Assembly (NCBI GenBank): GCA_046329115.1
Contig: JAXLVG010000001.1
Coordinates: 61,287-125,286 of the forward strand
Source: Flavobacteriales bacterium
GTDB taxonomy: Bacteria > Bacteroidota > Bacteroidia > Flavobacteriales_F > PHOS-HE28
Length of the DNA stretch: 64,000 bases
Direction of reading: 5' to 3'
The notes beneath the pieces are model-generated. The model saw only the letters and a program-made list of their open reading frames with translations, was not told where the DNA came from and did not search any database. Of the stretch, positions 397 through 56,409 are shown one piece after another. Within the stretch, counting starts at the first letter, position 1. The number at the start of each line of letters is the position of its first letter. Both the position numbers and the translations under genes were made by a program.

Positions 397-471
397 ACTG
401 GTCTTCTGTGGAACGATCATCGGCTGTTCTGGTCCGGTCTAACAATAAGTTGAAATCGCATCTACGATTTC

Positions 472-583
<112 letters not shown>

Positions 584-3890: not shown

Positions 3891-5192
3891 TCAACGGTTC
3901 AGCACCGGGAGCACCCAGGCACCTTCGGCCCCCAGGGCCCATGAAGCCGCCACCGCCCCGTTGCCCGGGTCGAACGCGAAGGCCTCCTGGCCGCGTACCG
4001 CGAACATCACACCACTGACGGGGTCAAGGCCCAGGTCGCGGACCGGTGCGCCCGCGCCGATGTTCAGTGAGCCGGCGTTCGCATAGGTGAAGCGTTCAAT
4101 GCGCCCGTCCTCCAAGGCGACGATCCACGTGTTGGCGTCCACCCGCTCTGCTGTCGAGATCGGGGACGACCAGGTGCGCGGCTCCCAGCCACCCCCCCCG
4201 GCGATCGAACGTTCCTGCACGATCCCCTGGCCGTTCCGGTTGCCGAAGAGCAGTGCTTGGGTGTTCGTCCGGCCATCGATGCGCACCACCTCCAGGTCCA
4301 GGGCGTGGTCCGTGATGTAGGCGCCACCGGGCGATGCGCATACCCGCAGGAGATGCTGGCCGCCGGCCGTGGCGTTCTGCGCGATCAGCAGGCGGTCGCC
4401 CACCACCGCGCAGCGTCCGCTCCGGTAGCCGTTGGCCAGCGTGGCGATGGCGGCCACCGCGCAGTTGGCCGGGGTGTACGCGCGCAGCAGCCCGTCCGTG
4501 GTGCCCACATGGAGCAGCCCATCGGCGCATACATCAAGCGATGTGAACCAGGGGATGCCCGCGTTGGAGCCGTTCGGCCGCGCCCAACGCGTGGCACCGC
4601 CATCGGCGGCATAGGCGGTGAGCGGTCCTGTGTAGGGTCCGATGGTGAAGAACGCGCCCGCGGCATTGCTGACGTCGGCACCGTTCAGGTCGGCCAGCAC
4701 GGTGCTCACGGCATGCAGTTCGCCAAGGCTGTCGATGCGCTGGATGCCCATCTGGTCCGGAGCGGGCCGTGTGAGCACGATCACGTGGCGCAACCGTAGC
4801 GGGGCTGCGGTGATCTGCACATCAGCCTCGGCCCTTGCGCTGGCCTCGCCGGAGCGGGCCTCGGCCACCAGCCGATAGGTACCGGAGGCCAAGGCCTCGC
4901 TGGTGACCGGCAGGGGCACCTCGATGTGGGCCGGGTTCCCGGTGGGCGCAAGGCTGAGCACCGGCACCACCGGCACACCTTGTGCGTTCAACAGGCTGAT
5001 GAGCACGCGGTCCAGCGGACCTTCGCTGTAGGCATCCAGTTCCACCTCCAGCGTGTCCGGCACGGTGAACGCGAAGCCATCGGAAGGGCGAACGAGGGTG
5101 ATCGTGGGCGGTACATCCTCCTCCTCTTTGCGGCACGCAGTGAAAAGCACCGCAAGAAGTGCGAGCGCCGCAACGGATCGTTGATAACCCAT
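3891..5192 (-). CDS. hypothetical lipoprotein (Gly/Ala-rich, possibly beta-propeller)
   Basis: Signal peptide plus lipobox (MGYQRSVAALALLAVLFTAC). 433 aa with no recognisable catalytic motifs. Confidence 0.55.
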   Translation of the reverse strand: MGYQRSVAALALLAVLFTACRKEEEDVPPTITLVRPSDGFAFTVPDTLEVELDAYSEGPLDRVLISLLNAQGVPVVPVLSLAPTGNPAHIEVPLPVTSEALASGTYRLVAEARSGEASARAEADVQITAAPLRLRHVIVLTRPAPDQMGIQRIDSLGELHAVSTVLADLNGADVSNAAGAFFTIGPYTGPLTAYAADGGATRWARPNGSNAGIPWFTSLDVCADGLLHVGTTDGLLRAYTPANCAVAAIATLANGYRSGRCAVVGDRLLIAQNATAGGQHLLRVCASPGGAYITDHALDLEVVRIDGRTNTQALLFGNRNGQGIVQERSIAGGGGWEPRTWSSPISTAERVDANTWIVALEDGRIERFTYANAGSLNIGAGAPVRDLGLDPVSGVMFAVRGQEAFAFDPGNGAVAASWALGAEGAWVLPVLNR

Positions 5193-5312
5193 CGCCGCAA
5201 GTTAACGCCGGGCGCGGGCGCAGGCATGGATCAACGATCGATCGTGTGCCGGGTGTTGATCCAATGTGATGAGCGCGGGAGGATCGGCCGGTCCCGCCGG
5301 TGGTGGCCGGGC

Positions 5313-5320
5313 TACATTTG
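5313..5320 (+). promoter_or_regulatory. putative Bacteroidota sigma-A -7 element (TAnnTTTG) upstream of dnaB
   Basis: TACATTTG lies 41 nt upstream of the dnaB ATG and matches the Bacteroidetes -7 consensus TAnnTTTG. No clear -33 TTG partner was identified. Confidence 0.3.
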
Positions 5321-5360
5321 GCTCCCCGCGCCCCGGTCCATCCGGTGGTTCAACATATCC

Positions 5361-6890
5361 ATGGCCGATCCCGCTTCCACCCGCCTAGGCGACCGCACCC
5401 GTGCTGGTGCCGGACGCCGGGCCCCAGTGTCCCTCATCGATCAATCACTGGAAGCCGGCAAGTTGCCACCGCAGGCGCCGGAGCTGGAGCAGGCCGTGCT
5501 GGGCGCCATGATGCTGGAGCGCAACGCGGTGAACGAGGCCATCGATATCCTGCAGCCAGACAGCTTCTATGTGGAAGCCCACAAGCGCATCTTCGACGCC
5601 ATCCAGGGCCTCTTCCGCACGGACCAGCCGATCGACCTGCTCACGGTGACGCAGGAGCTCAAGCGGCGCGGCGAACTGGACATCGTGGGCGGGCCGTTCT
5701 ACATCAGCCAGCTCACCAACAAGGTGGCCAGCAGCGCGAACGTGCAGTACCACGCGCGCATCATCAGCCAGAAGCACATCCTGCGCGAGATGATCCGCAT
5801 CAGCGCCGGTACCATGCGGGATGCCTACGATGAGACCACGGACGTGTTCGACCTGCTCGACCGCACGGAGCAGGACATGTACGCGATCACCAGCGGCAAC
5901 CTGAAGCGGAACTACGAGCCGATGAGCGACCTGATCCAGGACGCCATCAGCCAGATCGAGAACGCCAAGAACAAGGGCGATGGCGTCAGCGGTGTGCCCA
6001 CGGGCTTCGTGAAGCTCGACAAGCTCACCGGTGGCTGGCAGCGCAGCGACATGATCATCGTGGCCGCCCGACCCGGCATGGGCAAAACGGCCTTCGTGCT
6101 CAGCATGGCGCGCAACATCGCCGTGGAGCACAAGAAGGCCGTGGCCGTGTTCAGCCTGGAGATGAGCAGCACCCAGCTCGTCACCCGTCTCATCGCGAGC
6201 GAGGCGGCCATCGGTTCGGAGAAGCTGCGCAAGGGGGACCTCAACGAGCAGGAGTTCGCCCTGCTGCACCAGCACATCGCACGGCTCACCAACGCCCCCA
6301 TCTTCATCGACGACACGCCCGCACTGAACATCTTCGAGCTGCGCGCCAAGTGCCGCCGCCTGAAGAGCCAGCACAACGTGGAGGTGATCATCATCGATTA
6401 CCTGCAGCTGATGACGGCGGGCGGCGACACCAAGGGCGGCAACCGCGAGCAGGAGATCAGCACCATCAGCCGCTCGATCAAGAGCATCGCCAAGGAACTG
6501 GACGTGCCCATCATCGCCCTCAGCCAGCTGAGCCGCGCGGTGGAGACCCGGGGCGGCGACAAGCGGCCCATGCTGAGCGACCTGCGCGAATCGGGCGCCA
6601 TCGAGCAGGATGCGGACCTGGTGTGCTTCCTCTATCGACCGGAGTACTACAAGATCTACGAGGACCACTACGGCAGCACGCTCGGCGTGGGTGAGTGCAT
6701 CGTGGCCAAGCACCGTAACGGCGCGCTGGACACTGTGCTGCTGCGCTTCATTCCCGAGCTGGCCAAGTTCGCCGACCTGGAGACGAGCCCCATTACCTTT
6801 GATGGCGGCACGGGATCCGCAGGGCCTTCAACGATCACGCGGCCCAGCCGGATGAACGATGACACCAGCGACGACATCGCGCCGTTCTGA
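5361..6890 (+). CDS. dnaB: replicative DNA helicase DnaB
   Basis: Walker A (ARPGMGKTAF), DnaB motifs (SLEMS, IIDYLQLM, SQLSRAVE, ESGAIEQDAD) and the N-terminal DnaB domain (ELEQAVLGAMML). Start MADPASTRL at 5361; the ORF 4926.. extension was rejected. No intein. Confidence 0.9.
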   Translation: MADPASTRLGDRTRAGAGRRAPVSLIDQSLEAGKLPPQAPELEQAVLGAMMLERNAVNEAIDILQPDSFYVEAHKRIFDAIQGLFRTDQPIDLLTVTQELKRRGELDIVGGPFYISQLTNKVASSANVQYHARIISQKHILREMIRISAGTMRDAYDETTDVFDLLDRTEQDMYAITSGNLKRNYEPMSDLIQDAISQIENAKNKGDGVSGVPTGFVKLDKLTGGWQRSDMIIVAARPGMGKTAFVLSMARNIAVEHKKAVAVFSLEMSSTQLVTRLIASEAAIGSEKLRKGDLNEQEFALLHQHIARLTNAPIFIDDTPALNIFELRAKCRRLKSQHNVEVIIIDYLQLMTAGGDTKGGNREQEISTISRSIKSIAKELDVPIIALSQLSRAVETRGGDKRPMLSDLRESGAIEQDADLVCFLYRPEYYKIYEDHYGSTLGVGECIVAKHRNGALDTVLLRFIPELAKFADLETSPITFDGGTGSAGPSTITRPSRMNDDTSDDIAPF

Positions 6891-6918
6891 CCGTTGCACG
6901 GGGCCGCGCTTTCGTGCG

Positions 6919-8163
6919 ATGCTCCTGGCCATGCTGCTGGTCTGTTCAGCACAGGCCACCAAGCTGCTGCTGCCCATGGACGGCAGCCAGAAGGACCACC
7001 TGAAGGCTTACGGGATCGCGTTCTGGACCATCTCGCAGGAGCTTCCCGTGGAATGGCTGCTCAATTACCGCGGCGGCAGTTTCCTCATCGATCATTACCA
7101 GTCCATCGAGCAGGAGTGCGTCGTACGCGGGGTCACCTACAACGTGATCGCCGATGGCCAGGCCGCCGAGATCCTGCGGGAGATCGCCGATCCCGAGGCC
7201 AACATGGAGGTGGTGAAGCTGGAGAAGGCCCCCCGCATCGCCGTGTACGCGCCGGAGAGCTTTCAGCCCTGGGACGATGCCGTGGCCCTGGTGATGACCT
7301 ACGCGGAGATCCCCTACACCCGCATCTACGACCGCGAGATCATCGCCGGTGTGCTGCCGCAGTACGACTGGCTGCACCTGCACCACGAGGACTTCACCGG
7401 GCAGTACGGCAAGTTCTACGGCCAGTTCCGGAACGCGGCGTGGTACCAGGACCAGGTGCGCGAGAGCGAGGCCATGGCCGCGGAGCTCGGCTTCGCGAAG
7501 GTGAGCGCCATGAAAGGGGCCGTTGCCGGCACCATCCGCGATTATGTGGCCGGTGGCGGATACCTCTTCACCATGTGCAGCGGAACGGACAGCTATGACA
7601 TCGCCCTGGCGGCCGAAGGCGTGGACATCTGTACGCCCGAGTTCGACCACGATGCCATGGATCCCCAGGCACAGCAAAAGCTCGACTTCAGCCGGGGATT
7701 CGCCTTCCAGGACTATCATCTGGTGACGGACCCCATGACCTACGAGTTCAGCGACATCGATGGCACCCAGGAACACAGCCGTTCCGGTGGCGAAACGCGG
7801 GACTTCTTCACCCTGTTCGACTTCAGCGCGAAGTGGGATGTGGTGCCGAGCATGCTGTGCCAGAACCATGAGCAGGTGATCCACGCCTTCATGGGCCAGA
7901 CCACGGACTTCCGCCGGCGCTTCGTGAAGCCGAACGTGCTGGTGATGGGGGAGAGCAAGCCGCTCGGCACGGCGCGTTACATCCATGGCGAGTTCGGTCT
8001 TGGGCAATGGACCTTCTATGGAGGCCATGATCCGGAGGACTACCAGCACCTGGTCGGCGATCCGCCGACGGACTTGAGCCTGTTCCCCAACTCCCCGGGC
8101 TACCGGCTGATCCTGAACAACATCCTCTTCCCCGCAGCACGCAAGCGCAAGCAGAAGACATGA
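6919..8163 (+). CDS. hypothetical secreted protein (conserved-looking; possible DJ-1/ThuA/GATase1-like fold)
   Basis: Signal peptide MLLAMLLVCSAQA. A GGGYLFTMCSGTD segment suggests a nucleophile-elbow-like Cys. I cannot assign a family. Confidence 0.5.
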   Translation: MLLAMLLVCSAQATKLLLPMDGSQKDHLKAYGIAFWTISQELPVEWLLNYRGGSFLIDHYQSIEQECVVRGVTYNVIADGQAAEILREIADPEANMEVVKLEKAPRIAVYAPESFQPWDDAVALVMTYAEIPYTRIYDREIIAGVLPQYDWLHLHHEDFTGQYGKFYGQFRNAAWYQDQVRESEAMAAELGFAKVSAMKGAVAGTIRDYVAGGGYLFTMCSGTDSYDIALAAEGVDICTPEFDHDAMDPQAQQKLDFSRGFAFQDYHLVTDPMTYEFSDIDGTQEHSRSGGETRDFFTLFDFSAKWDVVPSMLCQNHEQVIHAFMGQTTDFRRRFVKPNVLVMGESKPLGTARYIHGEFGLGQWTFYGGHDPEDYQHLVGDPPTDLSLFPNSPGYRLILNNILFPAARKRKQKT

Positions 8164-12428: not shown

Positions 12429-12593
12429 GGGGTGTCCTTGAGTTCAACAGGCACGCAGCTGGACCACTGCGGGGCCCTGGTGGGTCGTTCCGGGTGGAGT
12501 GTTCCAGGGTGCGGGCATTCCGGGTGACTGCTGCGGTCAAATGTATCAGGGACCATGCGTGGCACGTGGTTATGTTTGCAGCAACAGCTACGC

Positions 12594-13145
12594 ATGGACC
12601 TTTCCAAGATCATCTCCGTCACCGGCAAGAGCGGCCTTTTCCGCGTCATCGCCCAAGGCCGCCAGGCCATCATTGCCGAATCCCTGGCCGATGGGAAGCG
12701 GGTACCCGTTCCCACCAGCGTGCGGGTGAGCTCGTTGGACGAGATCAGCATGTTCACCACGGGTGACGATGTGCCGCTGAAGGAGGTGTTGACCAAGCTG
12801 CACGAGCTGGCCAAGGGCGGCCCTTCCGCAGATCCCAAGGCCGACGACGATACGCTTTGGAAGGCGCTGGTGGCCGCGCTGCCGACCGCCGACCGTGACC
12901 GCATCTATTCCAGCGACGTCCGTAAGCTCTTCACCTGGTATGCCCTTCTGCTGGCCGCCGGTGAACTGAACAAGAAGGAGGAGAAGAAGGAGGAGGGCGA
13001 CAAGCCGAAGGAGGCCAAGGCCAAGAAGGATGCGGAGAAGGGGGGCAAGGTGAAGGCCGATATCGGTGCCAAGAAGGGCGGCGCCAAGGCCGGAGGCGCG
13101 CCGAAGTCCGCCACGCCCCGTCGCGGCGGCCAGCGCGGCAGCTGA
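12594..13145 (+). CDS. DUF5606-like protein with Lys/Ala-rich histone-H1-like C-terminal tail
   Basis: Start MDLSKIISVTGKSGLF is typical of a conserved Bacteroidota family. The tail is KKEEKKEEGDKPKEAKAKKDAEKGGKVKADIGAKKGGAKAGGAPK. Confidence 0.55.
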   Translation: MDLSKIISVTGKSGLFRVIAQGRQAIIAESLADGKRVPVPTSVRVSSLDEISMFTTGDDVPLKEVLTKLHELAKGGPSADPKADDDTLWKALVAALPTADRDRIYSSDVRKLFTWYALLLAAGELNKKEEKKEEGDKPKEAKAKKDAEKGGKVKADIGAKKGGAKAGGAPKSATPRRGGQRGS

Positions 13146-13251
13146 TCCCGGACGCCACAGGCACGGACTTTACCTGCCAAGAACAGCATCGCTTGCGGTG
13201 GACGACCGCTGGCCGGCGCGTTTATCTTGCCGCCGATCAACGTAACCCTAC

Positions 13252-15219
13252 ATGGTGTTCAAGCGCCCCATCGTGCACGCTGTTGCCCTCGTGTCCGCTG
13301 CCGGTATCGTTGCGCTCTTCGCGGCGTTCAACACAGCGGCCCCCACGGCGGGCCACTTCCACTCTGAAGAGGAGCTGGAGGCGTATGACCGGGCCGCCGG
13401 CCTGCCCTTCGCGGAGAACACCTACTTCAAGACCAGCGGCAAGTGCGAAGGCTGCCATGGCCATGACCCCACCGGGTTCGCCGGCGTTACGCAGGAGGGC
13501 GGTGTGGACGTGAACGTGGTGGACCATTGGCGCAGCTCCATGATGGCCAATAGCGCGCGCGACCCCTTCTGGCGCGCCAAGGTGAGCCACGAAGGACTGG
13601 TGAACCCCGACCACCAGGTGGCCCTGGAGGACAAGTGCACCAGCTGCCATGCCCCCGCCGGAAGGCATGACAAGCACATGCTGGGGCATGGTCCCTACAC
13701 CATCGCGGAGCTCACGCAGGACCCCAATGGACTGGACGGCGTGAGCTGTGTGCCCTGCCACATCCAGAGCGCGGACAGCATCGGAAAGCTCTTCTCCGGG
13801 GAGCTGAAGTTCGATACCCTCGGCCGGCCGCTCTATGGCCCTTATGGGAATGTGTTCGGTTCGCCCATGACCAGCTTCGTGGGCTATGAACCCCTGTTCG
13901 GTGCGCACATCAACCACGCCGGGCTCTGCGCGGGTTGTCATACGCTCATCACCGAGACCGCCGACCTGGAAGGGAACGCCACCGGTGGCGAGTTCGTGGA
14001 ACAGGCCACCTACCACGAGTGGTTGAACTCGAAGTTCAACGACCAGGAGCATCCGGAGACGGGCATCACCTGCCAGGGGTGCCATGTGCCCCGCATCGAC
14101 GATGGTGTGGTGTTGAGCGCGAACTACATCTTCCTCCAGCCCCGCAGTCCGTTCGGGCTGCATGACTTCGCGGGCGCCAACACCTTCATGCTCGGCCTGC
14201 TGAAGAACAACATCGATGCGCTCGGGCTCAGCGCGGACGCCACGCAGTTCGACAGCACCATCCAACGCACGGAACGCATGCTGCGCAATGGTCTCCTGGT
14301 GGAGGCCTCCATGGCGGACCGCACGGCGGACACGGCATTCATCGATGTGAAGCTCACGAACCTGGCGGGCCACAAGTTCCCCAGTGGTTACCCGGCCCGC
14401 CGCGCGTGGGTGGAACTGGTGGTGACCGATGCCAACGGAGACACGCTGTTCCACAACGGCGCCTGGGACGGCAGCTACGATGTGGTCGGCCATGATGCCT
14501 CGTGGGAGCCGCACCACGATGTGATCCGGAACACCGAGGACGTGCAGATCTACGAGATGGTGATGGCCGATGTGAACGGCGACAAGACCACGGTGCTCGA
14601 ACGCGCCGCCGACAAGCTGAAGGACAATCGCCTTACGCCGGAGCTGTTCTCCTCCGCCCACTACACCAACGACACGGTATTTATCGCGAACGTGCCGCCC
14701 ACCGATGCGGACTTCAACCGGTACGACAATGGCGACGAGGGCAGCGGCTCGGACATCGTGCACTACCATGTGCCCATGAACGGGTTCACCGGCCTGGTGA
14801 ACGTGCGTGCCCGGGTGTGGTACCAGAGCGCTCCGCCCCGCTGGATGGAGGAGATGTTCGCCTACAACAGCGCCGAGATCGACACCTTCCGCAACATGTA
14901 CCTGGCCGAGGACGTGTCGCCCTTCCTGGTGAAGGAGGAGGCGTTCAGCGACGTGAGCACGGGCGTGGACGACCTTGCCGAGCTGGGTGTGCGGATCGCG
15001 CCGAACCCAACGCCCGATGGTCAGTTGGTCATCACGGGACTGGGTCCTGAGGTGATCGGTGCCGAGGTGTATGACCTGCGTGGCGGTCTGGTGGCGGCGC
15101 ACCGCGCGAACAGCGGGTCCACCTGGCACCTGCGGTTGCCGGCCGGGCCTTCCACCTACCTGGTGAGCATCCGAACGCCCCAACGCACCTTTGTGGAACG
15201 CGTCGTCAGCCTGCGTTGA
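13252..15219 (+). CDS. multi-heme (5x CxxCH) c-type cytochrome with T9SS type-A C-terminal sorting domain
   Basis: Signal peptide. Heme motifs CEGCH, CTSCH, CVPCH, CAGCH, CQGCH. The C-terminal ~80 aa is T9SS-CTD-like (IAPNPTPDGQLVITGLGPEVIGAEVYDLRGGLV...VSLR). Confidence 0.75.
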   Translation: MVFKRPIVHAVALVSAAGIVALFAAFNTAAPTAGHFHSEEELEAYDRAAGLPFAENTYFKTSGKCEGCHGHDPTGFAGVTQEGGVDVNVVDHWRSSMMANSARDPFWRAKVSHEGLVNPDHQVALEDKCTSCHAPAGRHDKHMLGHGPYTIAELTQDPNGLDGVSCVPCHIQSADSIGKLFSGELKFDTLGRPLYGPYGNVFGSPMTSFVGYEPLFGAHINHAGLCAGCHTLITETADLEGNATGGEFVEQATYHEWLNSKFNDQEHPETGITCQGCHVPRIDDGVVLSANYIFLQPRSPFGLHDFAGANTFMLGLLKNNIDALGLSADATQFDSTIQRTERMLRNGLLVEASMADRTADTAFIDVKLTNLAGHKFPSGYPARRAWVELVVTDANGDTLFHNGAWDGSYDVVGHDASWEPHHDVIRNTEDVQIYEMVMADVNGDKTTVLERAADKLKDNRLTPELFSSAHYTNDTVFIANVPPTDADFNRYDNGDEGSGSDIVHYHVPMNGFTGLVNVRARVWYQSAPPRWMEEMFAYNSAEIDTFRNMYLAEDVSPFLVKEEAFSDVSTGVDDLAELGVRIAPNPTPDGQLVITGLGPEVIGAEVYDLRGGLVAAHRANSGSTWHLRLPAGPSTYLVSIRTPQRTFVERVVSLR

Positions 15220-15279
15220 GCAGGTGCCTCCGAAACCCTACCGACCTGCGGCCGTTAGAACGCGCTCCATTCCGTGCCC

Positions 15280-16134
15280 ATGAACCTCCTGCGCAAGTAC
15301 CCCGTCGCCATCTTCATCACGCTCACCCTGCTCGCGCAGTTCGCGGTGGTGCTTTTGAGCTGGATGCTCATTCCCGAAGGCGAGGAGATGCATGCGGACA
15401 GCCCCGGGGCACGGGCCGCGCACATGGTCTTCCGATTCCGCGTTTTTTTCCCCCTTGGACTGGCCATCATCCTCACCTTCCTGCTGGACGGAGCGGCCGG
15501 CGTTCGCAAGCTCTTTGCCTCCTTCTTCCACTGGCGTGTGCCGTTCAAGTGGTATGCCATGGCCGTTTCGTGGAAGTTCGTGCTGGGTTACATCGGAATT
15601 TTCTCCGTTGTGCTGATGGGGCTCCACCCTTGGCAAGGATGGATCAATGCCAACTGGCTGGGCAACCTGATCCACACGGCGTTCTTTGTTGTGGGCATCG
15701 CCATCGTGGAGGAGACCTCGTGGATACGTTTTTCCGTGACCCGTCTGCAGGAGAAGCGGTCCGCCTTTTTCGCCTGCACCGTGGTGGGACTTGCGTGGGG
15801 AGCCTGGTACCTGATGATGATGTTGATCGGTGAAGGCGTGCCGGATGGCATTCCCTGGTTCGCGTTCATCATCTCCATGTTCAGCCTCACCGTGCTGCTC
15901 ACCTGGGCCTATAACACCACCCGCAGCGGCACTGTGCTGCTGATCATGCAGATCTTCAGCAACTGTGCGTTCCTGGTGACCCCCATCCTGCCCGGTCCGG
16001 GGGCTGAGCCCCACGCCATGAACGGCTTCGTGGTCGCCTTCCTGGTGCTGGCCATCGTGCTGCTCCGGGTAGCTGGCACGGAACACCTGCGCGTGGGGGG
16101 CGAGCGCGCCCGCTGGAGCGATCCAGCGAAGTGA
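15280..16134 (+). CDS. CPBP family intramembrane glutamic endopeptidase (CAAX protease-like)
   Basis: Multi-TM protein with an EExxxR motif (IVEETSWIRF) and conserved His. Confidence 0.65.
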   Translation: MNLLRKYPVAIFITLTLLAQFAVVLLSWMLIPEGEEMHADSPGARAAHMVFRFRVFFPLGLAIILTFLLDGAAGVRKLFASFFHWRVPFKWYAMAVSWKFVLGYIGIFSVVLMGLHPWQGWINANWLGNLIHTAFFVVGIAIVEETSWIRFSVTRLQEKRSAFFACTVVGLAWGAWYLMMMLIGEGVPDGIPWFAFIISMFSLTVLLTWAYNTTRSGTVLLIMQIFSNCAFLVTPILPGPGAEPHAMNGFVVAFLVLAIVLLRVAGTEHLRVGGERARWSDPAK

Positions 16135-16157
16135 GCCATCGGCTTACCTTGGTGCGC

Positions 16158-17366
16158 ATGACGCGCCTCGCTTTGCTGTCGACCCTTCTGCTGGCTTTCC
16201 ATGCCCCTGGCGCACGCGCGCAGCATCCCGCTGTGCAGGCGGCCATCGATGCCGTGAACATCGATTCGCTCATCCTTGATCTGCGGCAATTGGACGGTGA
16301 GGCGCCCATTGACCTGGGCAATGGCCCCCAGTCCATCGTCAGCCGCAATAAGAACCAACCCGGGAATCCGCTTGCTGCGGATTGGCTCCAACTGCGGATG
16401 CAGCAGCTGGGCTTCGAGCCCACGTTGCAGGTGTTCAGCGGGGGCACGGGTGAGAACATCATCGCCGAGAAGCCCGGGGCCCTGCATCCGGAGCGGAAAG
16501 TGATCATCTGCGGACATTATGACGCCATGCCCGGCGGACCTGTGGCCGCCCCCGCAGCGGACGACGACGGATCGGGCACCGTTGCCGTGCTGGAGGCCAT
16601 GCGCGTGCTGCGCGACATCACCTTCGAGAACACGCTCGTGTTCGCCCTCTGGGACGAGGAGGAGCAGGGCAAGCTCGGTAGCATCTACTACGCCGGCGTG
16701 GCTGCGGCCAGCGATGTGGAGATCACCGGCGTGGTGAACATGGACGCGATCGCCTACGATGGCGACGGCGATGGCCTGATGCGCATCCACACCAAGAACA
16801 TCGCCAACAGCATCGCCATCAAGGATTCCGCCCTGATGGTGAACAGCACGTACGGCCTCAACCTCAACACGGCCATCAACCTGCCCGGCGCCACCTACAG
16901 CGACCATGCCTCGTTCTGGAACGAGAACTACGGGGCCATCCTGGTGATCGAGGACTTCGACAACGATGGCAACCCGCACTACCACACCACCACCGACCTG
17001 GTGGAGTATCTGGACCAGCCGTACTTCCAAGGACTGGCGCGCCTGAGCATCGGCACGGCCGCCGTACTTGCCAAGCCTTACGCATCCGTGCCGAACGCTG
17101 TGGTCGCTTCGGGCGCGACAGAGTCCGGCGCCTATGCCTGGCCGAACCCCACGCACGGCCCCGTGCGCGTGGCCCGCACCCGGACAGATCGCCCCGCTAC
17201 CGTGCAGTTGGTGGATCCGCTCGGTCGCGTGGTCGAGGAGCAGCGCCTGGGTTCCGGACAGCGGCTGCTGGACCTGGACCTCTCGGCACGTGTTCCAGGC
17301 ACCTACGAGGTGCGGGTCTTGGACGCGACTGGCGTGGGCTGCGTGCGCGTGATGCGGCTGCCGTAG
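16158..17366 (+). CDS. M28 family zinc aminopeptidase with T9SS type-A CTD
   Basis: M28 metal-binding motifs (CGHYDAMP, DDDGSGTVAVLE, WDEEEQG, HYHTTTD). The C-terminal CTD is AYAWPNPTHGPVRVAR...YEVRVLDATG...MRLP. Confidence 0.8.
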   Translation: MTRLALLSTLLLAFHAPGARAQHPAVQAAIDAVNIDSLILDLRQLDGEAPIDLGNGPQSIVSRNKNQPGNPLAADWLQLRMQQLGFEPTLQVFSGGTGENIIAEKPGALHPERKVIICGHYDAMPGGPVAAPAADDDGSGTVAVLEAMRVLRDITFENTLVFALWDEEEQGKLGSIYYAGVAAASDVEITGVVNMDAIAYDGDGDGLMRIHTKNIANSIAIKDSALMVNSTYGLNLNTAINLPGATYSDHASFWNENYGAILVIEDFDNDGNPHYHTTTDLVEYLDQPYFQGLARLSIGTAAVLAKPYASVPNAVVASGATESGAYAWPNPTHGPVRVARTRTDRPATVQLVDPLGRVVEEQRLGSGQRLLDLDLSARVPGTYEVRVLDATGVGCVRVMRLP

Positions 17367-17370
17367 CTGT

Positions 17371-19557
17371 TCAGCGCGTCGGCCTGATCACGCTGTCCAC
17401 GTGGTCGAGCACCTTCGTCATCAGGTGCAGGCGGTCGCGGCCGCGCACGTTGTGCGGGTGGCCCGGGTACACGAAGAAGTCCAGCTGCACGCCCTTGCTC
17501 ACACAGTTCTTGATGAAGGTGTAGCTGTGCTCGGGCAGCACCACGTCGTCCACGCCGCCGTGGATGAGCAGGAGCTTGCCCGTGAGCTTGTCGCACTTGT
17601 CCGGCAGCGCGCTGGCGGCATAGCCGTCCGGGTTCTCCTGCGGGGTGTCCATGTAGCGTTCGGTGTACATCACCTCGTACATGCTCCAATCCATCACCGG
17701 GCCACCGGCAACGCCCACTTGGAAGGTGCCTGGTGCCTTCACCATCAGTGAGGTGGTCATGAAGCCGCCGTAGCTCCAGCCGTGCACGGCCATGCGCTTG
17801 TCGTCCACGTAGGGCAGGCCCTTCAGGTAGTCCACGCCGCGCAGCTGGTCCTTCACTTCCACCTCGCCCAGCCGGCGGTGGATGGTCTGCTCGAAGTCGC
17901 GGCCGCGGTTCTCGCTGCCATGCCCGTCCACGGTGAAGACCAGGTAGCCGCGCTCGGCCGCTTCCAGCATCCAGTGCGAGGCGCCACCGATGAAGCTGTT
18001 GGTGACCAGTTGGGCATGTGGCCCGTTGTACAGGTACACCAGCACCGGGTAGCGGCGTGCAGGGTCGAAGGTGCTTGGTTTGATCAGGCGCGCGTTCAGC
18101 TTGTCGCCGTTCTCGCCGGGGATGGTGAACAGGTCGATGGTGCCCACGGCGTAGCTGGCCAGCGGATCCGGGCTTTCCAGCAGGGTGCGCAGCACTTTTC
18201 CCGTGGCGCCGTCGCGCACCTCCACGCGGCCGGGCACCTGCAGGCTGCTCCAGCTGTCGAGGAGCAGGCGCCCGTTGGTGCTGAGCTGTGCGTTGTGCGT
18301 GCCGGGCTCGTTGGTCAGCAGCAGGCTCTTGCCCGCGCGCAGGTCGATGCGGTACACGTGGGTCTCGGTGGCGCCACGCGGGTCCTGCGGGTCGATCGGC
18401 GCGGTGCCTTCCACGGTGAGGTGCCGCTCCTGCTCATCCAGCCCCACCACGCGCTTCACCACCCAGTTGCCCTTGGTGAGCGGACGCACCAGGCCCTTGC
18501 TCAGGCTGTAGAGGTACAGGTGCGGGTAGCCGTCGCGCTGGCTCCACCAGATGAACTTGTCCGGGTCGCTCTTCAGGAAGCGCATCGGGTGCATGGGCTC
18601 CAGCCACTTCGGGTCACGCTCCTCCAGCACGTCCTTCACCGCGCGGCCCGTGGCCGCATCGTACTGCACCACGCGCAGGTGGTCCGTGGCGCGGTTCAGG
18701 TGCACCACGAAGAGGCTGCGCTGGTCCGGCGACCAGGCCAGGTTCGTGAGGTACTGGTCCTTCGGCTCGCCGGTCTGCAGGAACACCGTGCGCTTGGTGC
18801 GGGTGTCGAACACGCCGATGGTGGCGTGGTGGCTGGTCTGCCCCGCCATGGGGTAGCGCGTGACGTTGAAGGTGCTGGGCTTGGTGCTGATGTCCTCGAG
18901 TTGATAGGTGGTCACCATCGACTCGTCCAGCCGGTAGAAGGCCAGGAGGTCGCCCTGCGGGCTCCAGAAGGTGCCCTTCTCCACGCCGTACTCGTTGCGG
19001 TGCACGTTGCCCGCTCCGTTCACGATGCCGTCGGCCCCGTCCGTGGTCACGCGGATGGTGTGCTCGCGCTCGCGGTTGGAGTGGATGTAGAGGTCGTTGC
19101 CGCGGGTGTAGGCCACCTGCATTCGAAGCTCATCGGGGTCCTGGTGGTCGGCATCGCCGGGGAGCGCCATGTGCTGTAGCAGCGTCTGCTTCGACAGGTC
19201 GTACTGGTAGATCACACTGTCCACACCGAAGTAGCACAGGTTGGCACCCGTCCAGCTTACCGGCGGCAGCCGCTTGAGCGGATCCTTGCGCTGGAGGCCA
19301 TCGTTCACCTGCTTCAGGGTGAGGATGGGCAGTTCGGCCATCTTGCCGGCCCCGGCGCGCCAGAGCGTGTCACCCTTCACGTAGCAATAGGTCTCCGTGT
19401 TCGGGATCCACTGCAGACCCTGCAGACGCTTCGGGGCCAGATCGGTGCCGGCCTTCAGCACGGCGTCCTTCAGCGTAAGCGTTTGCTTTTGCGCGTTTAC
19501 GGCCAGGGAGAACAGGCCGCAGGTCGCGATCAGAACACGGGGACGAAAAGGCATCAT
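17371..19557 (-). CDS. S9B family dipeptidyl-peptidase IV
   Basis: N-terminal beta-propeller plus catalytic triad context (HGWSYGGFMT, GGVDDVV, HPHNV). 728 aa with signal peptide. Confidence 0.85.
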   Translation of the reverse strand: MMPFRPRVLIATCGLFSLAVNAQKQTLTLKDAVLKAGTDLAPKRLQGLQWIPNTETYCYVKGDTLWRAGAGKMAELPILTLKQVNDGLQRKDPLKRLPPVSWTGANLCYFGVDSVIYQYDLSKQTLLQHMALPGDADHQDPDELRMQVAYTRGNDLYIHSNREREHTIRVTTDGADGIVNGAGNVHRNEYGVEKGTFWSPQGDLLAFYRLDESMVTTYQLEDISTKPSTFNVTRYPMAGQTSHHATIGVFDTRTKRTVFLQTGEPKDQYLTNLAWSPDQRSLFVVHLNRATDHLRVVQYDAATGRAVKDVLEERDPKWLEPMHPMRFLKSDPDKFIWWSQRDGYPHLYLYSLSKGLVRPLTKGNWVVKRVVGLDEQERHLTVEGTAPIDPQDPRGATETHVYRIDLRAGKSLLLTNEPGTHNAQLSTNGRLLLDSWSSLQVPGRVEVRDGATGKVLRTLLESPDPLASYAVGTIDLFTIPGENGDKLNARLIKPSTFDPARRYPVLVYLYNGPHAQLVTNSFIGGASHWMLEAAERGYLVFTVDGHGSENRGRDFEQTIHRRLGEVEVKDQLRGVDYLKGLPYVDDKRMAVHGWSYGGFMTTSLMVKAPGTFQVGVAGGPVMDWSMYEVMYTERYMDTPQENPDGYAASALPDKCDKLTGKLLLIHGGVDDVVLPEHSYTFIKNCVSKGVQLDFFVYPGHPHNVRGRDRLHLMTKVLDHVDSVIRPTR

Positions 19558-33972: not shown

Positions 33973-36900
33973 CTACTTCAGCAACGTCACGTGCCCGATC
34001 AGGTCGTGCTTCTTGCGGGTGATGAGGTCGCGGAAGTGGAGCTTCCAGGCGTAGACATCCTCCTTCACCAGTTCGCCGCTCATGCGCCCGTCCCACGTTT
34101 CGCCCACGCGGCGGCTCTCGAAGATCAGTTCCCCCCAGCGGTCGAAGACGAGCAGGTCATAGTCCGCAACGTTCTGCGGGTTGTTGAACACGGGCCTGAA
34201 GCCCTCGTTCATGCCGTCGTCATTCGGTGTGAAGGCATTGGGCACATGCACGATGAGCTCCCCCAGCACCACGACCGGATGACAGGTGGTGTCCACGCAA
34301 CCGTTGGCGTTCATCGCGGTCAAGCACACGGTGTAGGTGCCATCGAGCACATCGGGGAAGGTGAAGGACGGCTCGCCTTCCGTGGACGCGCCCAGCCCGG
34401 CGAAGTCCCAGAAGAAGCTTGTGGCGAAGGCGCTCTGGTTCATGAAGTCGACCGACGTGATGCCGGTGATCACCGTGTCCTCCACAGCCGTGAACGACGC
34501 GATCACCGGCGGTGGTGAGGCCACGGATGCGGTGGCCGAGGCCAGGCACCCGTTCGCGTCCTGCATCATCAGCATGTAACTGCCCGCACACAGTCCGGCG
34601 AACGCAGGCGTGCCCTGCCAGGTGAGGCCGCCATCCGCACTGAACAGCACACCCTCGGTGTCCACCACGGTGGCCGTACCGTCGCACTGCCCGGGGCAGA
34701 GCTCGTCCGTGGCCAGCACCGCGTCGATCACCAAAGGAGGCGGTTGTCCGATGGTAAGCTCCACGAACCCCTTGCAGCCAAAGGCATCGGTGATGATGAC
34801 ATCGTAAGCCCCGGCGCACAGCCCAGTTGCGCTCACGTCCGTCTGTCCCGCCACACCGCCGCTCCATTGGAACGTGTAGTCCGGTGTACCTCCGCTTACC
34901 TGAAGCGATGCGCTGCCATCGCAGGAACCATGGCATACCGCATCGGTCACGGTCGTGGTGGCCTGGATCGCCGGCGGCACGCTGACCACCACGGCGGCCT
35001 GATCGTTCGCACACGGCGCCGTGGCGTTCACCATGTAGGTGTACGTGCCGGGCTGGTCAACGGCCGGATCGAACAGGCCGCCCATGGCCGCGCCCCCCGG
35101 TGCAGACCAGGTGCCACCAGCGTCCGGCGAGCCACCAAGTGCGGTGAACAGGTCGACGGGCGCGCCGTCCGGACAGAGCGTCAGGGTATTGTCCGCGCCG
35201 GCATCGGGTGGCAATACCACTTCGGTGACCACCGTGGCCGTGGCGGCAGCGCACGGTGGAGTGCCGTGGACCATGTAGGTGTAGGCCCCGGACGGATCCA
35301 CCGCCGGATCGAAGTTCGCGCTGTGCGTGAGGCCGTTGAACGACCAGGAGCCTCCGGGATCGGGCGTCCCACCGAGCCATGCAAAAAGGTCCATGACCCC
35401 GTCGGTGCTGCAGAGCACGGTCGCTCCATCGGTACCCGGATCGGGCGGTTGCACAACGGAGATCAGCACCTGGCTGCTGGCGCTCTGGCAGGGGGGCGGT
35501 ACGCTCAGCGTGTAGGTATAGAGGCCCGGCTGCATCGTGGCCGGATCGAACACGCCGCCCTGCACCACGCTCGGGCCGGTCCAGCTTCCCCCCACATCCG
35601 GTGTGCCGCCCAATTGTGCGAAGAGGTCGATCGCGCTGCCATCCGCGCACAGGCTCGCCGCGCCGTTCCAGCCCGGATCCGGTTCCGCCGTCACCGCCAT
35701 CAGCACCTGTGCGCTGGCGGATGGGCAGGGCCATGTGCCCGCCACCGTGTAGGTGTAGGCCCCGGGAAGGTCCGTGGCCGGATTGAAGAGGGAGGTATGC
35801 GGCTGCCCATCAGGACCGGTCCAGGAACCGCCGGGCTGTGGTGCGCCCCCAAGCACCGTGAACAGGTCGCTCGCCGCGGCGCTCGCGCAGAGCACCGCGC
35901 TGCCATCGCTGCCCGCATCCGGCATGCTCTGGACCGCTACGACCACCTGGCTCTGCACGCTCGTGCAAGGAGCGGGCACATCGATGGTGTAGGTGTACGT
36001 GCCCGGGGCCATGCTGCCCGGTTGGAACAAGCCCCCGACCACCGGGCTGGGACCGCTCCATGTGCCGCCATTGTCCGGTGTGCCGCCCAGTTGATCGAAG
36101 AGCACCACCGCACTGCTGTTCGCGCAGAGCGTAACGGATCCATCCGTACCAGGGTCCGGTGCGGATACGACGTTCACAAGGACCGTGGACGTATCGGCGG
36201 GACAGGGTGCGATACCTGGTACGGTGTATGTGAGGGTCCCGGAAAGGTCGACCGCAGGGTCGAAGAGCGCACCGTGCGGTGCCCCGTTGAAGGTCCATGA
36301 TCCGCCACTTTGCGGCGACCCGGCAAGTTCCGCGAAGAGGTCCAGGGCAGGGGAGGACGCGCACAAGGTCACCGATCCATTTCCACCGGCATCCGGGGGA
36401 GCGTGAATGGTCACCAGAACCTCCGCGTCAACGCTTGGGCATGGTGCCGTGCCGGCCACGGTGTACGTGTAAATGCCCGACGCATCGATCGCGGGGTCCA
36501 CTTGGTCGCCGTGGGGGATCCCATTGAACGACCATTCGCCATCGGGGTCGGGGCTTCCTCCCAACAGTGCATCCAGGTCCACGACCGCGCTCGTGGTGCA
36601 CAGGTCCACGCTGCCGCCCGAGCCGGGGTCCGCCGGTTCCACCAGTGCGATCGTCACCGTGCTGCTTGTGCTGACGCACGGTGGTGGCACGTTGATGGCG
36701 TAGGTGTAGGTGCCGGGTGGGTCGTTCGCGGGATCGAAGAGCGCACCGTGGGCCGCACCGTTCGGATCGGTCCAGACGCCACCTGCGTCGGGCGTTCCGC
36801 CGAGCAGCCCAAGGAGCGGGAGCGCTGCAGCGGAACTGCAGAGCGTGGCGTTCCCGGGCAGACCTGCATCGGGGGTGCTGGTCACCGTCATGGTCACCGT

Positions 36901-39900
36901 GGCGCTCGCGCTCGGGCATGGTGCGGTACCGCTGACCGTGTAGGTGTAGATGCCGTTGGCATCCACGGAAGGGTCGAACGAACCGTTGTGCGGCGCCCCG
37001 TTGTAGGTCCATGCTCCTCCGGGATCCGGTGTGCCGCTGAGCTGCGCGAACAGGTCCACCGCAGGACTTCCGGTGCACAACAACAGCGCTCCATCGCCGC
37101 CTGGATCGGGAGGCGACGTGACGCTCACGTTCACCTGTGCGGCATCGTTGGCGCATGGCGCCGTGCCGGTCACGAGGTAGGTGTAAATGCCCGGCTGCAT
37201 CGTGCCCGGGTCGAACTGACCATTGCTCACGGCACTGGGCCCGCTCCAAGTGCCGCCGGCATCGGGCGTTCCACCGAGCTCCGCGAACAGGTCGATGCCG
37301 GACCCCGCAGCGCATGCGCTCAGCGTTCCATCGAGGCCTGCATCCGGAGGGGCCAGCTCGCTCACGGTGACGGTGGCCGCATCGCCCGGGCACGGTGCGG
37401 TACCTGAAAGCGTGTAGGTGTAGATGCCCGGAGCGTCGTTGTCCGGGTCGTACGAGGCGCTGTGGGATGCGCCGCCGACGCTCCAGGTCCCGCCGGCATC
37501 CGGCGTTCCCCCGAGCAGGGCGAAGAGGTCCATGGGGTCGTCCGTGCTGCAAACGGAAAGCGTTCCATCCTCGCCTGCATCCGGCGGTGCGTTCACGGTC
37601 ACTACCACGGTGGCCTGGTCATCGGGGCACGGGGCTGTACCCGTTACCGTGTATGAGTAGTTCCCCGGAGCATCGCTTCCGGGCGCGAAGGAGCCCGCGT
37701 GCGGCGCGCCAGCGAAGGTCCAGTTGCCGCCGGGTTGCGCGCCTGTGAGCGCATCGATCAGCGTTGCCGTGGGCGAGGTGGTGCAAACGGTCAACGCACC
37801 ATCCTGCCCGGCCTCGGGCGGTGCCTGCACCAGCACGGTGACAGTACTGCTCGCGTTCGTGCAAGGCGGTGGCACCGTGATGGTGTAGGTGTAGACCCCT
37901 GCTGCGTCGATCGCCGGGTCGAACATGCCGCCATGGGGAGTGCCGTTCACGCTCCATGTCCCGCCGGCATCCGGCGTGCCCCCGAGTTGCGCGAACAGGT
38001 CGATCGGGTCGCCGCTGGCGCAGACAACGAGCGCGCCATTGGTGCCGGGCTCCGGGTTGTTGGTCACCGAAACGGTCACCAGGGACTGGTCAGCAGGACA
38101 TGGCGCGATGCCGGCAACCGTGTAGGTGTATGCACCGGTCGCATCCGTTCCGGGCGAGAAGGTGTTCCCGTGCGGTACACCATTGAACGACCAGGAACCG
38201 CCGGCGTCCGCGCCCGCAAGCACCGTGAACAGGTCGATCGGCGGACTGCTGATGCACAGCAAGGCATCGCCATCCGCTCCAGCGTCGGGTGGCTGCACGA
38301 TGTTCACTGTGACGGTCGCGCTTTGGCTGGTGCAGGGGGGCGGCGCGTTCACCGTGTAGGTGTAGACCCCGGCCGCATCCACGGTCGGGTCCACCTGGCC
38401 GCTGTGCGGTGCCCCGTTGAAGCTCCAGGACCCACCGGCATCCGGAGTGCCCCCAAGCGCGGTGAAGAGGTCCGCTGCAGCGTCTGACGCGCACAGGGTG
38501 ATCGATCCATCCGTTCCCGGGTCGGGGTCGGTGGTAACGGCAACGGTCACGTTGGACTGATCGTCCGGGCACGGCGTGACGCCGGCGACCGTGTAGGTGT
38601 ATACGCCGGCCGCATCCGTTCCGGGATCGAACGTGCCGCCATGAGGCGCACCGTTGAAGGTCCACGTACCGCCGGTCTGTGCGCCGCTGAGCTCACCGAA
38701 CAGAGGCAATGGAGAGCCACTGACGCACAGCAGCGCATCACCGTCCGCACCGGCGTTCGCTGGTTGAACCACCATGACGGTCACTGTGGCGCTCTGGCTC
38801 GTGCACGGCGGCGGAACATCGACGGTGTAGGTATACACCCCTGCAGCCTCCGTGGCCGGGTCGAACGTGCCGGTGTGGGGCGCACCATTGAAGCTCCAGG
38901 ATCCACCTGGATCCGGTGTGCCGCCCAGGTTTGCGAACAGATCGATCGCGGCAGCGTTCGCGCACAAGGTGATCGAGCTGTTCATGCCGGGGTCCGGGTC
39001 GTTCGTCACCGCCACCGTCACCGCTGATTGGTCGTTCGGGCACGGAGCGATACCCGGAATGGTGTAGATGTACGCACCGGCAGCATCCAGGCCCGGGGTG
39101 AACAGGTTGCCGTGCGGAGCCCCGTTGAGCGACCAGGATCCCCCTGCTTGCGCCCCGCTCAGTTCGGCGAACAGGTCCAGCGCGGGGCCGCTGATGCAGA
39201 GGAGCGCATCCCCATCCGTGCCCGCGTCCGGCGGTTGAACGACGTCGACGGTCACGGTCGCGCTCACGTTCGCGCAGGGTGGGGGAACGGTGATGGTGTA
39301 GGTGTAGACACCCGGTGCGTCCGTTCCAGGGACGAAGGTGTTCCCGTGGGGGGCGCCGTTCGCGCTCCACGTGCCACCCAGGTCGGGTGTTCCTCCCAAT
39401 ACGGTGAACAGGTCGAACGTGCCGTCGCTGGCGCAAACGGTTGTGGTACCGTTCGTTCCCGGATCCGGTTGGGCGGTCACGGTGACATCCACGGTCGCCT
39501 GATCGGTTGGACAGGGCGCCGCACCCGTGACGGTGTAGATGTACGTGCCAGGGAGGTCGCTTCCGGGCGTGAACACATTCCCATGCGTGGCACCCCCGAA
39601 CGTCCACGTGCCTCCAGCTTCCGGAGCGCCTCCCAGTTCGGCGAAGAGGTCAATGGAGGGACTGCTGATGCACAGGATCGTTGCGCCGTCCGCCCCAGCG
39701 TCCGGTTGCTGGTTCACCGACACGATCACCTCGGCCTGGTCGTTGGGGCATGGTGCTGTGCCAGTGACCACGTACGTGTATTGGCCGCCGGCGTCCACGG
39801 ACGGATCGAAGGAGTTGCCGTGCGGGGATCCGTTGAACGACCAGCTCCCGCCAGGCTGCGCACCACCCAGCGACGCGAACAGGTCCACCGGTGTTCCGGA

Positions 39901-43272: not shown

Positions 43273-43476
43273 ATGGTCTTGGGCAGGGTCGCGGCGTAAT
43301 GTCACGTCATACAGTGAAGGCCCGGACGAACGTGTCCACCGGCCCCGCCAAACTATCGGCCCACCCCGTTCGATGGATGTCCGGATACCGCTTTCATGGG
43401 ACAATTCGACGAACCGCCACGTGTGAGCATCCAGAAGGTCACCCCTGTCGATGGACCCCAAGGGGGCGGTGCCCGC

Positions 43477-46848: not shown

Positions 46849-46940
46849 TCCGCTTGCGAACTTCTGGGATCCCGCTCGCATCCTACCGACCTGATCGCCC
46901 GGCTTGCTGGGGATCCCGGGCCGTGCTGGTCCTTCCGTCA

Positions 46941-52382: not shown

Positions 52383-52465
52383 GCTCTGCCATGTCCCCTC
52401 AAGACGCGATCCTTCGCGCAGGGTTGCCAGCGTAACGGGGCTGACCGTGGCCATGCGGGGAAGGT

Positions 52466-56233: not shown

Positions 56234-56409
56234 TGGTTCCTGGTGGACGGCTTGGATCAGCGGTAGGAGCGACGAAAGTACCGCCCGTCAAGAAGGCCAA
56301 CCTTGACCAACGGCACACTTTGTACACCATCCGGGGCAGGCAAACACACGCCGGAACGGCTTGTGCCTTAGGCTGCGGCAATGGTTGAAGGCCGCACGGG
56401 GCATCCTTC

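Follow-up and report, generated by a model that had tools for sequence, protein, structure and literature searches.

The window analysed here, a 64,000-nucleotide stretch of a Flavobacteriales bacterium genome (assembly GCA_046329115.1, contig JAXLVG010000001.1, positions 61,287 to 125,286 of the forward strand), encodes a pentaheme c-type cytochrome that ends in a sorting domain of the type IX secretion system (T9SS). The family to which this protein belongs is large, unnamed and uncharacterised. It can be seen as a branch within the c552/MccSep superfamily that has been combined with an export route undescribed for multiheme cytochromes. Tentatively, and with slightly less than even confidence, we propose that the cytochrome is a free-standing extracellular redox relay. 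Its electron donors and acceptors would be diffusible or located at the surface, for example secreted cupredoxins or dehydrogenases, shuttles, Fe or humic substances, and it would be neither a polysulfide reductase of the MccSep type nor the exit of an Mtr-like respiratory conduit.

The preliminary description of this DNA had reported a 655-residue protein with five CxxCH motifs in its N-terminal half, and it is upheld on both counts. The open reading frame, taken from the first start codon downstream of a stop, displays a coding-type codon bias (G+C of 0.86 at third codon positions against 0.44 at second positions, in a window of 64% G+C), and an identical protein is recorded on metagenome contigs with the same neighbours there. 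The motifs start at residues 65, 129, 166, 226 and 274, for a chance expectation from composition of 0.007, and they contain all of the 10 cysteines of the protein. Conservation was computed over 107 diverse family representatives sharing 33-55% identity with the window cytochrome, in which the five CxxCH are invariant (100%).

The same description had assigned the C-terminus to a T9SS type-A sorting domain and had allowed that this region might fail to score as such. The assignment holds, since the model TIGR04183 matches residues 582-652 with 24.9 bits against a curated cut-off of 23. The margin is small, and PF18962 gives no match in the window cytochrome, yet it matches several homologues. 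TIGR04183 is found in 55 of the 56 close relatives, with a best E-value of 7.7e-11, and in 37 of the 54 divergent tailed representatives; for these distant sequences the model was run on alignment A2, a hidden Markov model made from the sorting domains of the close relatives being too narrow at that distance. Two sorting domains of known structure, those of gingipain RgpB and NucA, are matched by the family profile. A structure model of the cytochrome was built from 56 relatives, with a predicted local distance difference test (pLDDT) of 71 and a predicted template modelling score (pTM) of 0.67, and was searched against solved structures. Its C-terminal domain shares the fold of solved, translocon-bound T9SS sorting domains, is the best-modelled part of the protein (pLDDT 86-93) and retains the PNP, GxY and terminal motifs. 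The signal thus resembles, by sequence model and by fold, the C-terminal beta-sandwich of about 75 residues carried by type-A cargo such as gingipain RgpB, mirolase, NucA and RemA. Known T9SS cargo consists chiefly of hydrolases, adhesins and motility proteins, and literature searches returned no description of a covalently hemylated multiheme cargo. No T9SS machinery gene was found within the window, where the PorW/SprE model gives a TPR protein 84 bits against its cut-off of 250. The window does contain six further genes for T9SS cargo (four with type-B CHU_C domains and two with type-A domains), from which the host may be taken to use the system. With its conserved sorting domain, the fold of this domain and the other cargo of the window, the predicted delivery of the cytochrome to the cell surface is well supported.

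The model and the alignments describe a core in which a five-heme helical cap is followed by an Ig-like beta-sandwich stem, an architecture described for c552 and MccSep (bioRxiv 10.1101/2025.11.18.688581). Among solved structures, the best sequence match is c552 of Thermochromatium tepidum (5ZE8), reached with an E-value of 1e-3 from the window cytochrome alone and of 1e-4 from the family profile, and the next is Geobacter MccSep (9WT8; E 0.05). The latter, also named ExtKL (NCBIfam NF040886), is a multiheme selenoprotein that serves Geobacter sulfurreducens as polysulfide reductase. It is a periplasmic and tetrameric enzyme in which polysulfide is reduced at heme 2, ligated by Cys239 (C239) and facing the selenocysteine (Sec) Sec325 (U325). 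A distant homology of the core to c552 and to MccSep/ExtKL is likely. In the case of MccSep this strength is given because the ExtKL model NF040886 has sub-threshold matches in 46 of the 54 divergent representatives; it is also weakly matched in 31 of the 56 close relatives, and the window cytochrome itself scores 18.2 bits against a cut-off of 250. What aligns is the second and third heme motifs, together with a loop of the stem of the form G-H-x-x-P-x-G-x-P-x-R. This loop reads N-L-A-G-H-K-F-P-S-G-Y-P-A-R-R in the window cytochrome, n-l-q-p-H-a-m-P-t-G-a-P-f-R in c552 and N-H-A-G-H-S-I-P-D-G-Sec-P in MccSep, where N-x-A-G-H-x-x-P-x-G-[Sec]-P aligns with N-L-A-G-H-K-F-P-S-G-Y-P.

The differences from these relatives are as marked as the likeness. 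Like the window cytochrome, c552 carries five c-type hemes in an N-terminal helical domain ahead of an Ig-like beta-sandwich, but the identity is only 16-20% (E 1e-3 to 1e-4). It is a soluble protein of about 385 residues, without a sorting domain and with a function that is itself unknown; the core of the window cytochrome is about 130 residues longer, with insertions at about 280-345 and 403-499, and its Met98 stands where c552 has a His. MccSep shares the five-heme cap and the Ig-like stem but is periplasmic, whereas the window cytochrome bears a T9SS export tag. A catalysis of the MccSep type can be rejected. Indeed, the residue aligned with Sec325 is Y380, in a column that holds Y in 57, F in 31, I in 15, H in 4 and L in 1 of 108 sequences, never Sec or Cys, and no Cys is available to ligate heme 2 because all of them sit inside the five CxxCH. 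PtdA, compared here by description, has been presented as homologous to c552 and built of the same two parts, and a role in extracellular electron transfer (EET) is suspected for it; its gene adjoins porin, tetraheme and decaheme genes, and no such partners lie beside the window gene or its relatives.

Other multiheme families were considered as well. The preliminary description had proposed a check against models of c554, NrfA and DMSO-reductase-type folds, and this check yielded only weak, overlapping or partial matches unsupported by the fold. The c554 model PF13435 reaches 24.7 bits against a gathering score of 20.8, but only over residues 65-170, where it overlaps equally weak c7, c3 and MtrC matches. 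The scores for PF22113 (23.7 bits, cut-off 30) and for the OmcA/MtrC model TIGR03507 (24.5 bits, cut-off 209.3) lie below threshold. A nitrite reductase of the NrfA type is rejected, all motifs being CxxCH with no CxxCK, 1qdb having an E-value of 9.3 by profile and no NrfA appearing among the fold matches. In fact none of the structures of MtrC, OmcA, UndA, NrfA or c554 was among the fold matches of the model. MtrC/OmcA, DmsE, NrfA, NrfH, c7 and c3 were discarded, their matches being weak, overlapping and below cut-off, or limited to one or two heme motifs, and unsupported by the fold search; membership of the c554 family is doubtful on the same grounds.

The family is widespread. Searching 1.84 billion representative proteins with the family profile gave 907 clusters at E<=1e-30, a number that rises to 2275 at E<=1e-10. 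When each species was represented by one genome, at least 562 of 598 candidate stretches contained relatives. The best 80 of these relatives come nearly all from Flavobacteriales genomes of activated sludge, lakes and similar sites, and some genomes hold two paralogues, with roughly 60-74% and 47-53% identity to the window cytochrome. The conserved unit corresponds to profile positions ~50-568. About half of 108 full-length sequences stop at ~568, and about half bear a tail of ~80-110 residues. Named tailed members belong to Flavobacteriales, Ignavibacteriaceae, Ignavibacterium album, Candidatus Kapaibacterium, Calditrichia, Marinimicrobia and 'FCB group' bacteria; named untailed members are found in Burkholderiaceae/Rubrivivax, Thermodesulfobacteriota and Phycisphaerae. 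A lipoprotein-type N-terminus is present in 29 of 100 representatives that were missed by a narrow, clade-specific sorting-domain model. Among the named members sampled, the T9SS tag occurs in T9SS-bearing phyla, and lipoprotein or dockerin anchors occur elsewhere. In public databases most members go by 'hypothetical protein' or 'T9SS type A sorting domain-containing protein', and 'multiheme c-type cytochrome' is a rare label. A member also exists in a cultured organism, Ignavibacterium album JCM 16511, whose IALB_2654 is 37% identical to the window cytochrome from end to end, sorting domain included.

This distribution of anchors bears on the possibility that the cytochrome never leaves the periplasm or the inner membrane, either because its C-terminal beta-sandwich is vestigial and unused in secretion or because an N-terminal anchor helix stays uncleaved. 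The N-terminus is hydrophobic and signal-like (Kyte-Doolittle means of 1.3-2.5 over residues 1-30, falling below 0 past residue 26) and is modelled as a helix at residues 5-27. The lack of an obvious A-x-A cleavage site in its sequence, a sorting-domain score barely above its cut-off, the missing PF18962 match and the solubility of c552 and MccSep, the second shown to be periplasmic, would fit such a location. We consider such a location very improbable, as the sorting domain is conserved in relatives to E 8e-11 with its characteristic motifs kept, is modelled better than any other part, matches translocon-bound sorting domains and is exchanged for lipoprotein or dockerin anchors on the same core outside the T9SS-bearing phyla sampled.

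Fusions give a first indication of function. In two different architectures from other phyla, the cytochrome core is joined to a pyrroloquinoline quinone (PQQ)-dependent glucose/sorbosone dehydrogenase placed at the N-terminus (P0185 and P0212); one of these proteins is from Phycisphaerae and the other also has an F5/8 type C sugar-binding domain. The layout resembles that of the fungal enzymes composed of a PQQ dehydrogenase, a cytochrome and a carbohydrate-binding module, which feed copper monooxygenases. Further fusions associate the core with DUF642 and dockerin domains, and include one protein of 1919 residues.

The conserved residues point in the same direction with respect to the hemes. 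Outside the motifs, conservation of at least 87% is reached by just four His and two Met: H219 (87%), H304 (99%), H374 (100%), H421 (99%), M206 (100%) and M98 (93%). H374 is the His of the stem loop common to c552 and MccSep, in which G373, H374, P377, P381 and R383 are all 100% conserved. Six candidate sixth ligands thus exist for five hemes, which suggests that all hemes are six-coordinate, with none left open. The sixth ligands would probably all come from the protein itself, supplied by these four His and by one or both of these Met, and one or two hemes would then be His/Met.

A large set of polar residues is likewise invariant, namely D104, E250, Q251, E256, K375, R383, R384, K457, D458, N459, R460, D485 and D501. 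Several residues that rank among the best conserved in the family (H421, Q432, Y434, T446, K457-D-N-R460, P463 and D485) reside in the stem insertion at residues ~403-499 (nucleotides ~14458-14748), which is poorly modelled and has no counterpart in c552; it carries K-D-N-R and D-x-D-F-N motifs, and D501 is also family-invariant. Possible roles of these residues are the binding of heme propionates or of calcium and the formation of a substrate site. In the last case the protein would be a catalytic oxidoreductase of the cell surface, its cap-and-stem module building an active site at one of the hemes, as in MccSep. The substrate would be a small molecule such as an oxyanion of sulfur or nitrogen, a peroxide or a metal ion, and electrons would be drawn from shuttles or from fused or secreted dehydrogenases. 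Its homology to an enzyme, MccSep, its many invariant polar residues outside the heme motifs and its conserved insertion of ~100 residues are in keeping with this, the PQQ-dehydrogenase fusion would make a self-contained enzyme with two half-reactions, and di-heme peroxidase genes are located near 26 relatives. A catalytic role is nevertheless unlikely in our opinion: Sec325 of MccSep is replaced by Y, F, I, H or L and no Cys serves heme 2, enough conserved His and Met are present to supply every heme with a sixth ligand, no CxxCK or other unusual heme motif is found, and no substrate-related gene is conserved nearby.

The genomic context of the family was examined in related loci. A gene for a plastocyanin/azurin-family protein of 206-218 residues with a T9SS tag adjoins the M28 gene, about 1 kb from the cytochrome gene, in 36 of ~57 related loci. 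In locus L001 its product passes both Pfam cut-offs, with 30.7 bits against 21.2 for plastocyanin/azurin and 29 against 27 for the T9SS sorting domain. The cupredoxin genes of L001 and L003 are at 13213-13833 (-) and 13235-13891 (-), and their putative copper site, YHC-x3-GH-x3-Q, hints at Gln instead of Met as axial ligand. One or two genes of the di-heme cytochrome c peroxidase family (CCP_MauG) occur between DPP-IV and MurB in 26 related loci, as at 16132-18322 (-) of L001. In a locus of Thermodesulfobacteriota (L089, 5153-9695, +), the homologue P0221 starts 8 bp after a gene for a three-domain multicopper oxidase, which itself follows MerR-family and NosL genes; these four genes are a possible copper-linked operon. 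The paralogue clade of 47-53% identity has MOSC, Vut_1, GNAT, c-type cytochrome and NuoF-like genes as neighbours. The remaining distant members are found in unrelated contexts, beside other T9SS cargo, beside a TonB-dependent receptor or beside nothing informative. No partner is universal across the related loci, and an assignment of function from gene context was therefore rejected.

The proposal of a redox relay was made on the basis of these observations taken together: the PQQ-dehydrogenase fusions, the dockerin and lipoprotein anchors, the secreted cupredoxin encoded nearby in many relatives, one multicopper oxidase neighbour in a distant member, the lack of a dedicated conduit, the sufficiency of conserved candidate sixth ligands for five hemes, and the otherwise solitary position of the gene in very different contexts. 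According to the established pathways, the protein would be exported by the general secretory route through its N-terminal signal and would receive its hemes covalently in the periplasm. Its type-A domain would then be recognised by T9SS, and the folded holoprotein would cross the outer membrane through the translocon, after which the sorting domain would be removed and the protein anchored at the cell surface on anionic lipopolysaccharide, or released. Its six-coordinate hemes, His/Met pairs among them, would then serve the relay role that conservation, fusions and context suggest.

A more respiratory function had been anticipated in the preliminary description, which saw in this protein a surface terminal reductase comparable to those of Geobacter and Shewanella. 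In such a scheme, the pentaheme would reduce Fe(III), Mn(IV), humics or electrodes and would be fed with catabolic electrons by an outer-membrane porin-cytochrome conduit encoded elsewhere in the genome. Surface delivery is well supported, as this scheme demands, and the tagged form spans T9SS-bearing phyla including the Ignavibacteria, whose type strains are reported to carry Geobacter-like porin-cytochrome clusters and some species of which reduce iron (PMC7399161). An electron path across the outer membrane is plausible there. Extracellular multiheme proteins have been predicted in Bacteroidota by a secretome survey of wastewater genomes (PMC11495043), and a precedent exists in OcwA of Thermincola potens, a surface terminal reductase with a fold nearer to reductases of soluble substrates than to MtrC (PMC6703420). 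By working principle, OcwA and MtrC/OmcA are the nearest precedents of the window cytochrome. OcwA, however, has nine hemes, belongs to a Gram-positive host and shows no detected homology. The Shewanella decahemes MtrC, OmcA and UndA are surface multiheme c-type cytochromes, to one pentaheme domain of which the window cytochrome has a weak local likeness; MtrC/OmcA bind ten hemes, in a pair of pentaheme domains with beta-barrel domains on their flanks, against five hemes here. Proteins of the MtrC type leave the cell as lipoproteins through the type II system and dock on MtrAB, whereas the window cytochrome has a T9SS tag and no MtrAB-like neighbour.

Several results speak against a respiratory role. 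In ~100 related loci, which span several phyla, a conserved gene for a porin-cytochrome, a periplasmic multiheme protein or a quinol dehydrogenase accompanies the cytochrome gene in none of the lineages sampled, and adjacent MtrAB-like porin or periplasmic decaheme genes are found neither in the window flanks nor in the related loci. The closest relatives among the matches listed are Flavobacteriales of activated sludge and lakes, and half of the family is devoid of a surface tag. The hemes of MtrC/OmcA are all bis-His, and Met ligation gives a higher potential; one or two conserved Met ligands would consequently raise the heme potentials above those of MtrC/OmcA. As a respiratory function EET is possible, though the evidence neither supports nor requires it, and we regard it as improbable.

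The relay proposal must itself be weighed against several difficulties. The putative export signal lacks an obvious cleavage site. The loops that wrap the hemes are poorly modelled (residues 190-216, 280-307 and 437-480; pLDDT below 50), and the candidate ligands were assigned by conservation. About 85 positions are conserved across the 33-55% identity range, many of them invariant charged residues, a density of polar conservation that would fit an enzyme better than a simple carrier. Neither the cupredoxin nor the CCP_MauG genes of the relatives occur anywhere in the window, where DPP-IV and MurB are 86 bp apart, and the gene order shared among relatives may reflect mere inheritance.

Full-text searches of the accessible literature found no paper that combines T9SS with multiheme cytochromes or EET. 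A survey of wastewater genomes predicts extracellular multiheme proteins in Bacteroidota with no mention of T9SS (PMC11495043), and a survey of outer-membrane cytochromes mentions neither Bacteroidota nor secretion (PMC11475568). A broader proposal, which we hold to be rather doubtful, is that the FCB group (Flavobacteriales, Ignavibacteria, Calditrichia and Marinimicrobia) uses T9SS to place a folded, heme-loaded pentaheme family on the cell surface. This would constitute a new redox route, serving EET or supplying electrons for secreted copper or PQQ enzymes, and independent of the lipoprotein/type II route of MtrC/OmcA. If so, T9SS would be able to carry covalently hemylated multiheme proteins, very common Bacteroidota of the environment and of wastewater would display redox-active heme chains on their surface, and the mechanisms and taxa of extracellular redox chemistry would be widened. 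The c552 family, a structural family without a function, would gain a second testable branch beside MccSep. Even a role as a secreted accessory redox protein would make a useful annotation. The family is ecologically common and unstudied; the question is directly testable in I. album, as a cultured and sequenced host of IALB_2654.

Table 1. Features of the cytochrome gene and of its neighbours in the window.
Feature	Coordinates	Strand	Remarks
Pentaheme c-type cytochrome gene with T9SS type-A sorting domain	13252-15219	+	655 aa; open reading frame and translation
Putative N-terminal signal-peptide-like segment, aa 1-28	13252-13335	+	K4, R5 and a hydrophobic stretch of ~20 residues
Alpha-helical pentaheme cap domain, aa ~50-345	13399-14286	+	contains all five CxxCH
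Heme motif 1, CEGCH, aa 65-69	13444-13458	+	100% conserved
Heme motif 2, CTSCH, aa 129-133	13636-13650	+	100% conserved; aligns with CLYCH of c552
Heme motif 3, CVPCH, aa 166-170	13747-13761	+	100% conserved; aligns with CVACH of c552
Heme motif 4, CAGCH, aa 226-230	13927-13941	+	100% conserved
Heme motif 5, CQGCH, aa 274-278	14071-14085	+	100% conserved
Ig-like beta-sandwich stem, aa ~346-570	14287-14961	+	modelled beta strands 348-402 and 500-567; conserved insertion of ~100 aa (aa ~403-499)
Signature N370-L-A-G-H374-K-F-P-S-G-Y380-P-A-R-R384	14359-14403	+	HMMER alignments to 5ze8 and 9wt8; common to c552 and MccSep
T9SS type-A C-terminal sorting domain, aa 582-652	14995-15207	+	
DUF5606/DUF6852 gene	12555-13145	+	upstream neighbour in every relative of at least 58% identity whose locus extends upstream
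CPBP/Rce1-like intramembrane protease gene	15274-16134	+	28.1 bits against 22.4; 54 bp downstream of the cytochrome gene
M28 aminopeptidase gene	16131-17366	+	103 bits; weak type-A sorting domain

The features of the locus are collected in Table 1; no Pfam model covers the stem (residues ~346-570). The two genes that the preliminary description had placed downstream, encoding a CPBP protease and an M28 peptidase, are indeed present. Secretion of the M28 peptidase by T9SS, claimed at the same time, is less clear: its sorting domain scores 23.2 bits with PF18962, under the cut-off of 27, and has no TIGR04183 match at E<=1e-4, although the PNP, GxY and terminal motifs can be seen in the sequence. 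In relatives of at least 58% identity, the gene order is DUF5606/DUF6852 - cytochrome - (CPBP) - M28 - (cupredoxin) - DPP-IV (opposite strand) - (CCP) - MurB. Of ~57 related loci, only ~12 include the CPBP gene, and in most relatives the M28 gene is directly 3' of the cytochrome gene, commonly with an overlap of 1-4 bases. A scan for promoters and terminators detected nothing that resembles a sigma-70 promoter, and nothing that resembles a terminator in the gap separating the cytochrome gene from the CPBP gene. The DUF5606/DUF6852 protein has a Lys/Ala/Glu-rich C-terminal tail that resembles histone H1.

Elsewhere in the window, positions 1-395 and 470-582 (+) belong to a ribosomal RNA operon, with the 3' end of the 23S rRNA and a complete 5S rRNA; a listed open reading frame at 539-1996 overlaps the 5S gene, and its start is thus probably wrong. 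The DnaB helicase gene at 4573-7152 (+) of both L003 and L004 contains an intein (Hom_end_hint and LAGLIDADG matches); the DnaB gene of the window (4926-6890) gives no such matches. A further protein with a type-A T9SS sorting domain (TIGR04183, 29 bits against 23) is encoded at 53967-56381 (-), with 804 residues and FG-GAP repeats. Finally, four tandem genes at 33973-43461 (-), 43477-46944 (-), 46941-50282 (-) and 50450-51796 (-) encode PKD, SprB-repeat and P-domain proteins of 3162, 1155, 1113 and 448 residues, each with a C-terminal CHU_C (type-B T9SS) sorting domain. By its domain content this array looks like a family of SprB-like surface adhesins, and it is followed on the same strand by a gene for an extracytoplasmic function (ECF) sigma factor at 51801-52454 (-).

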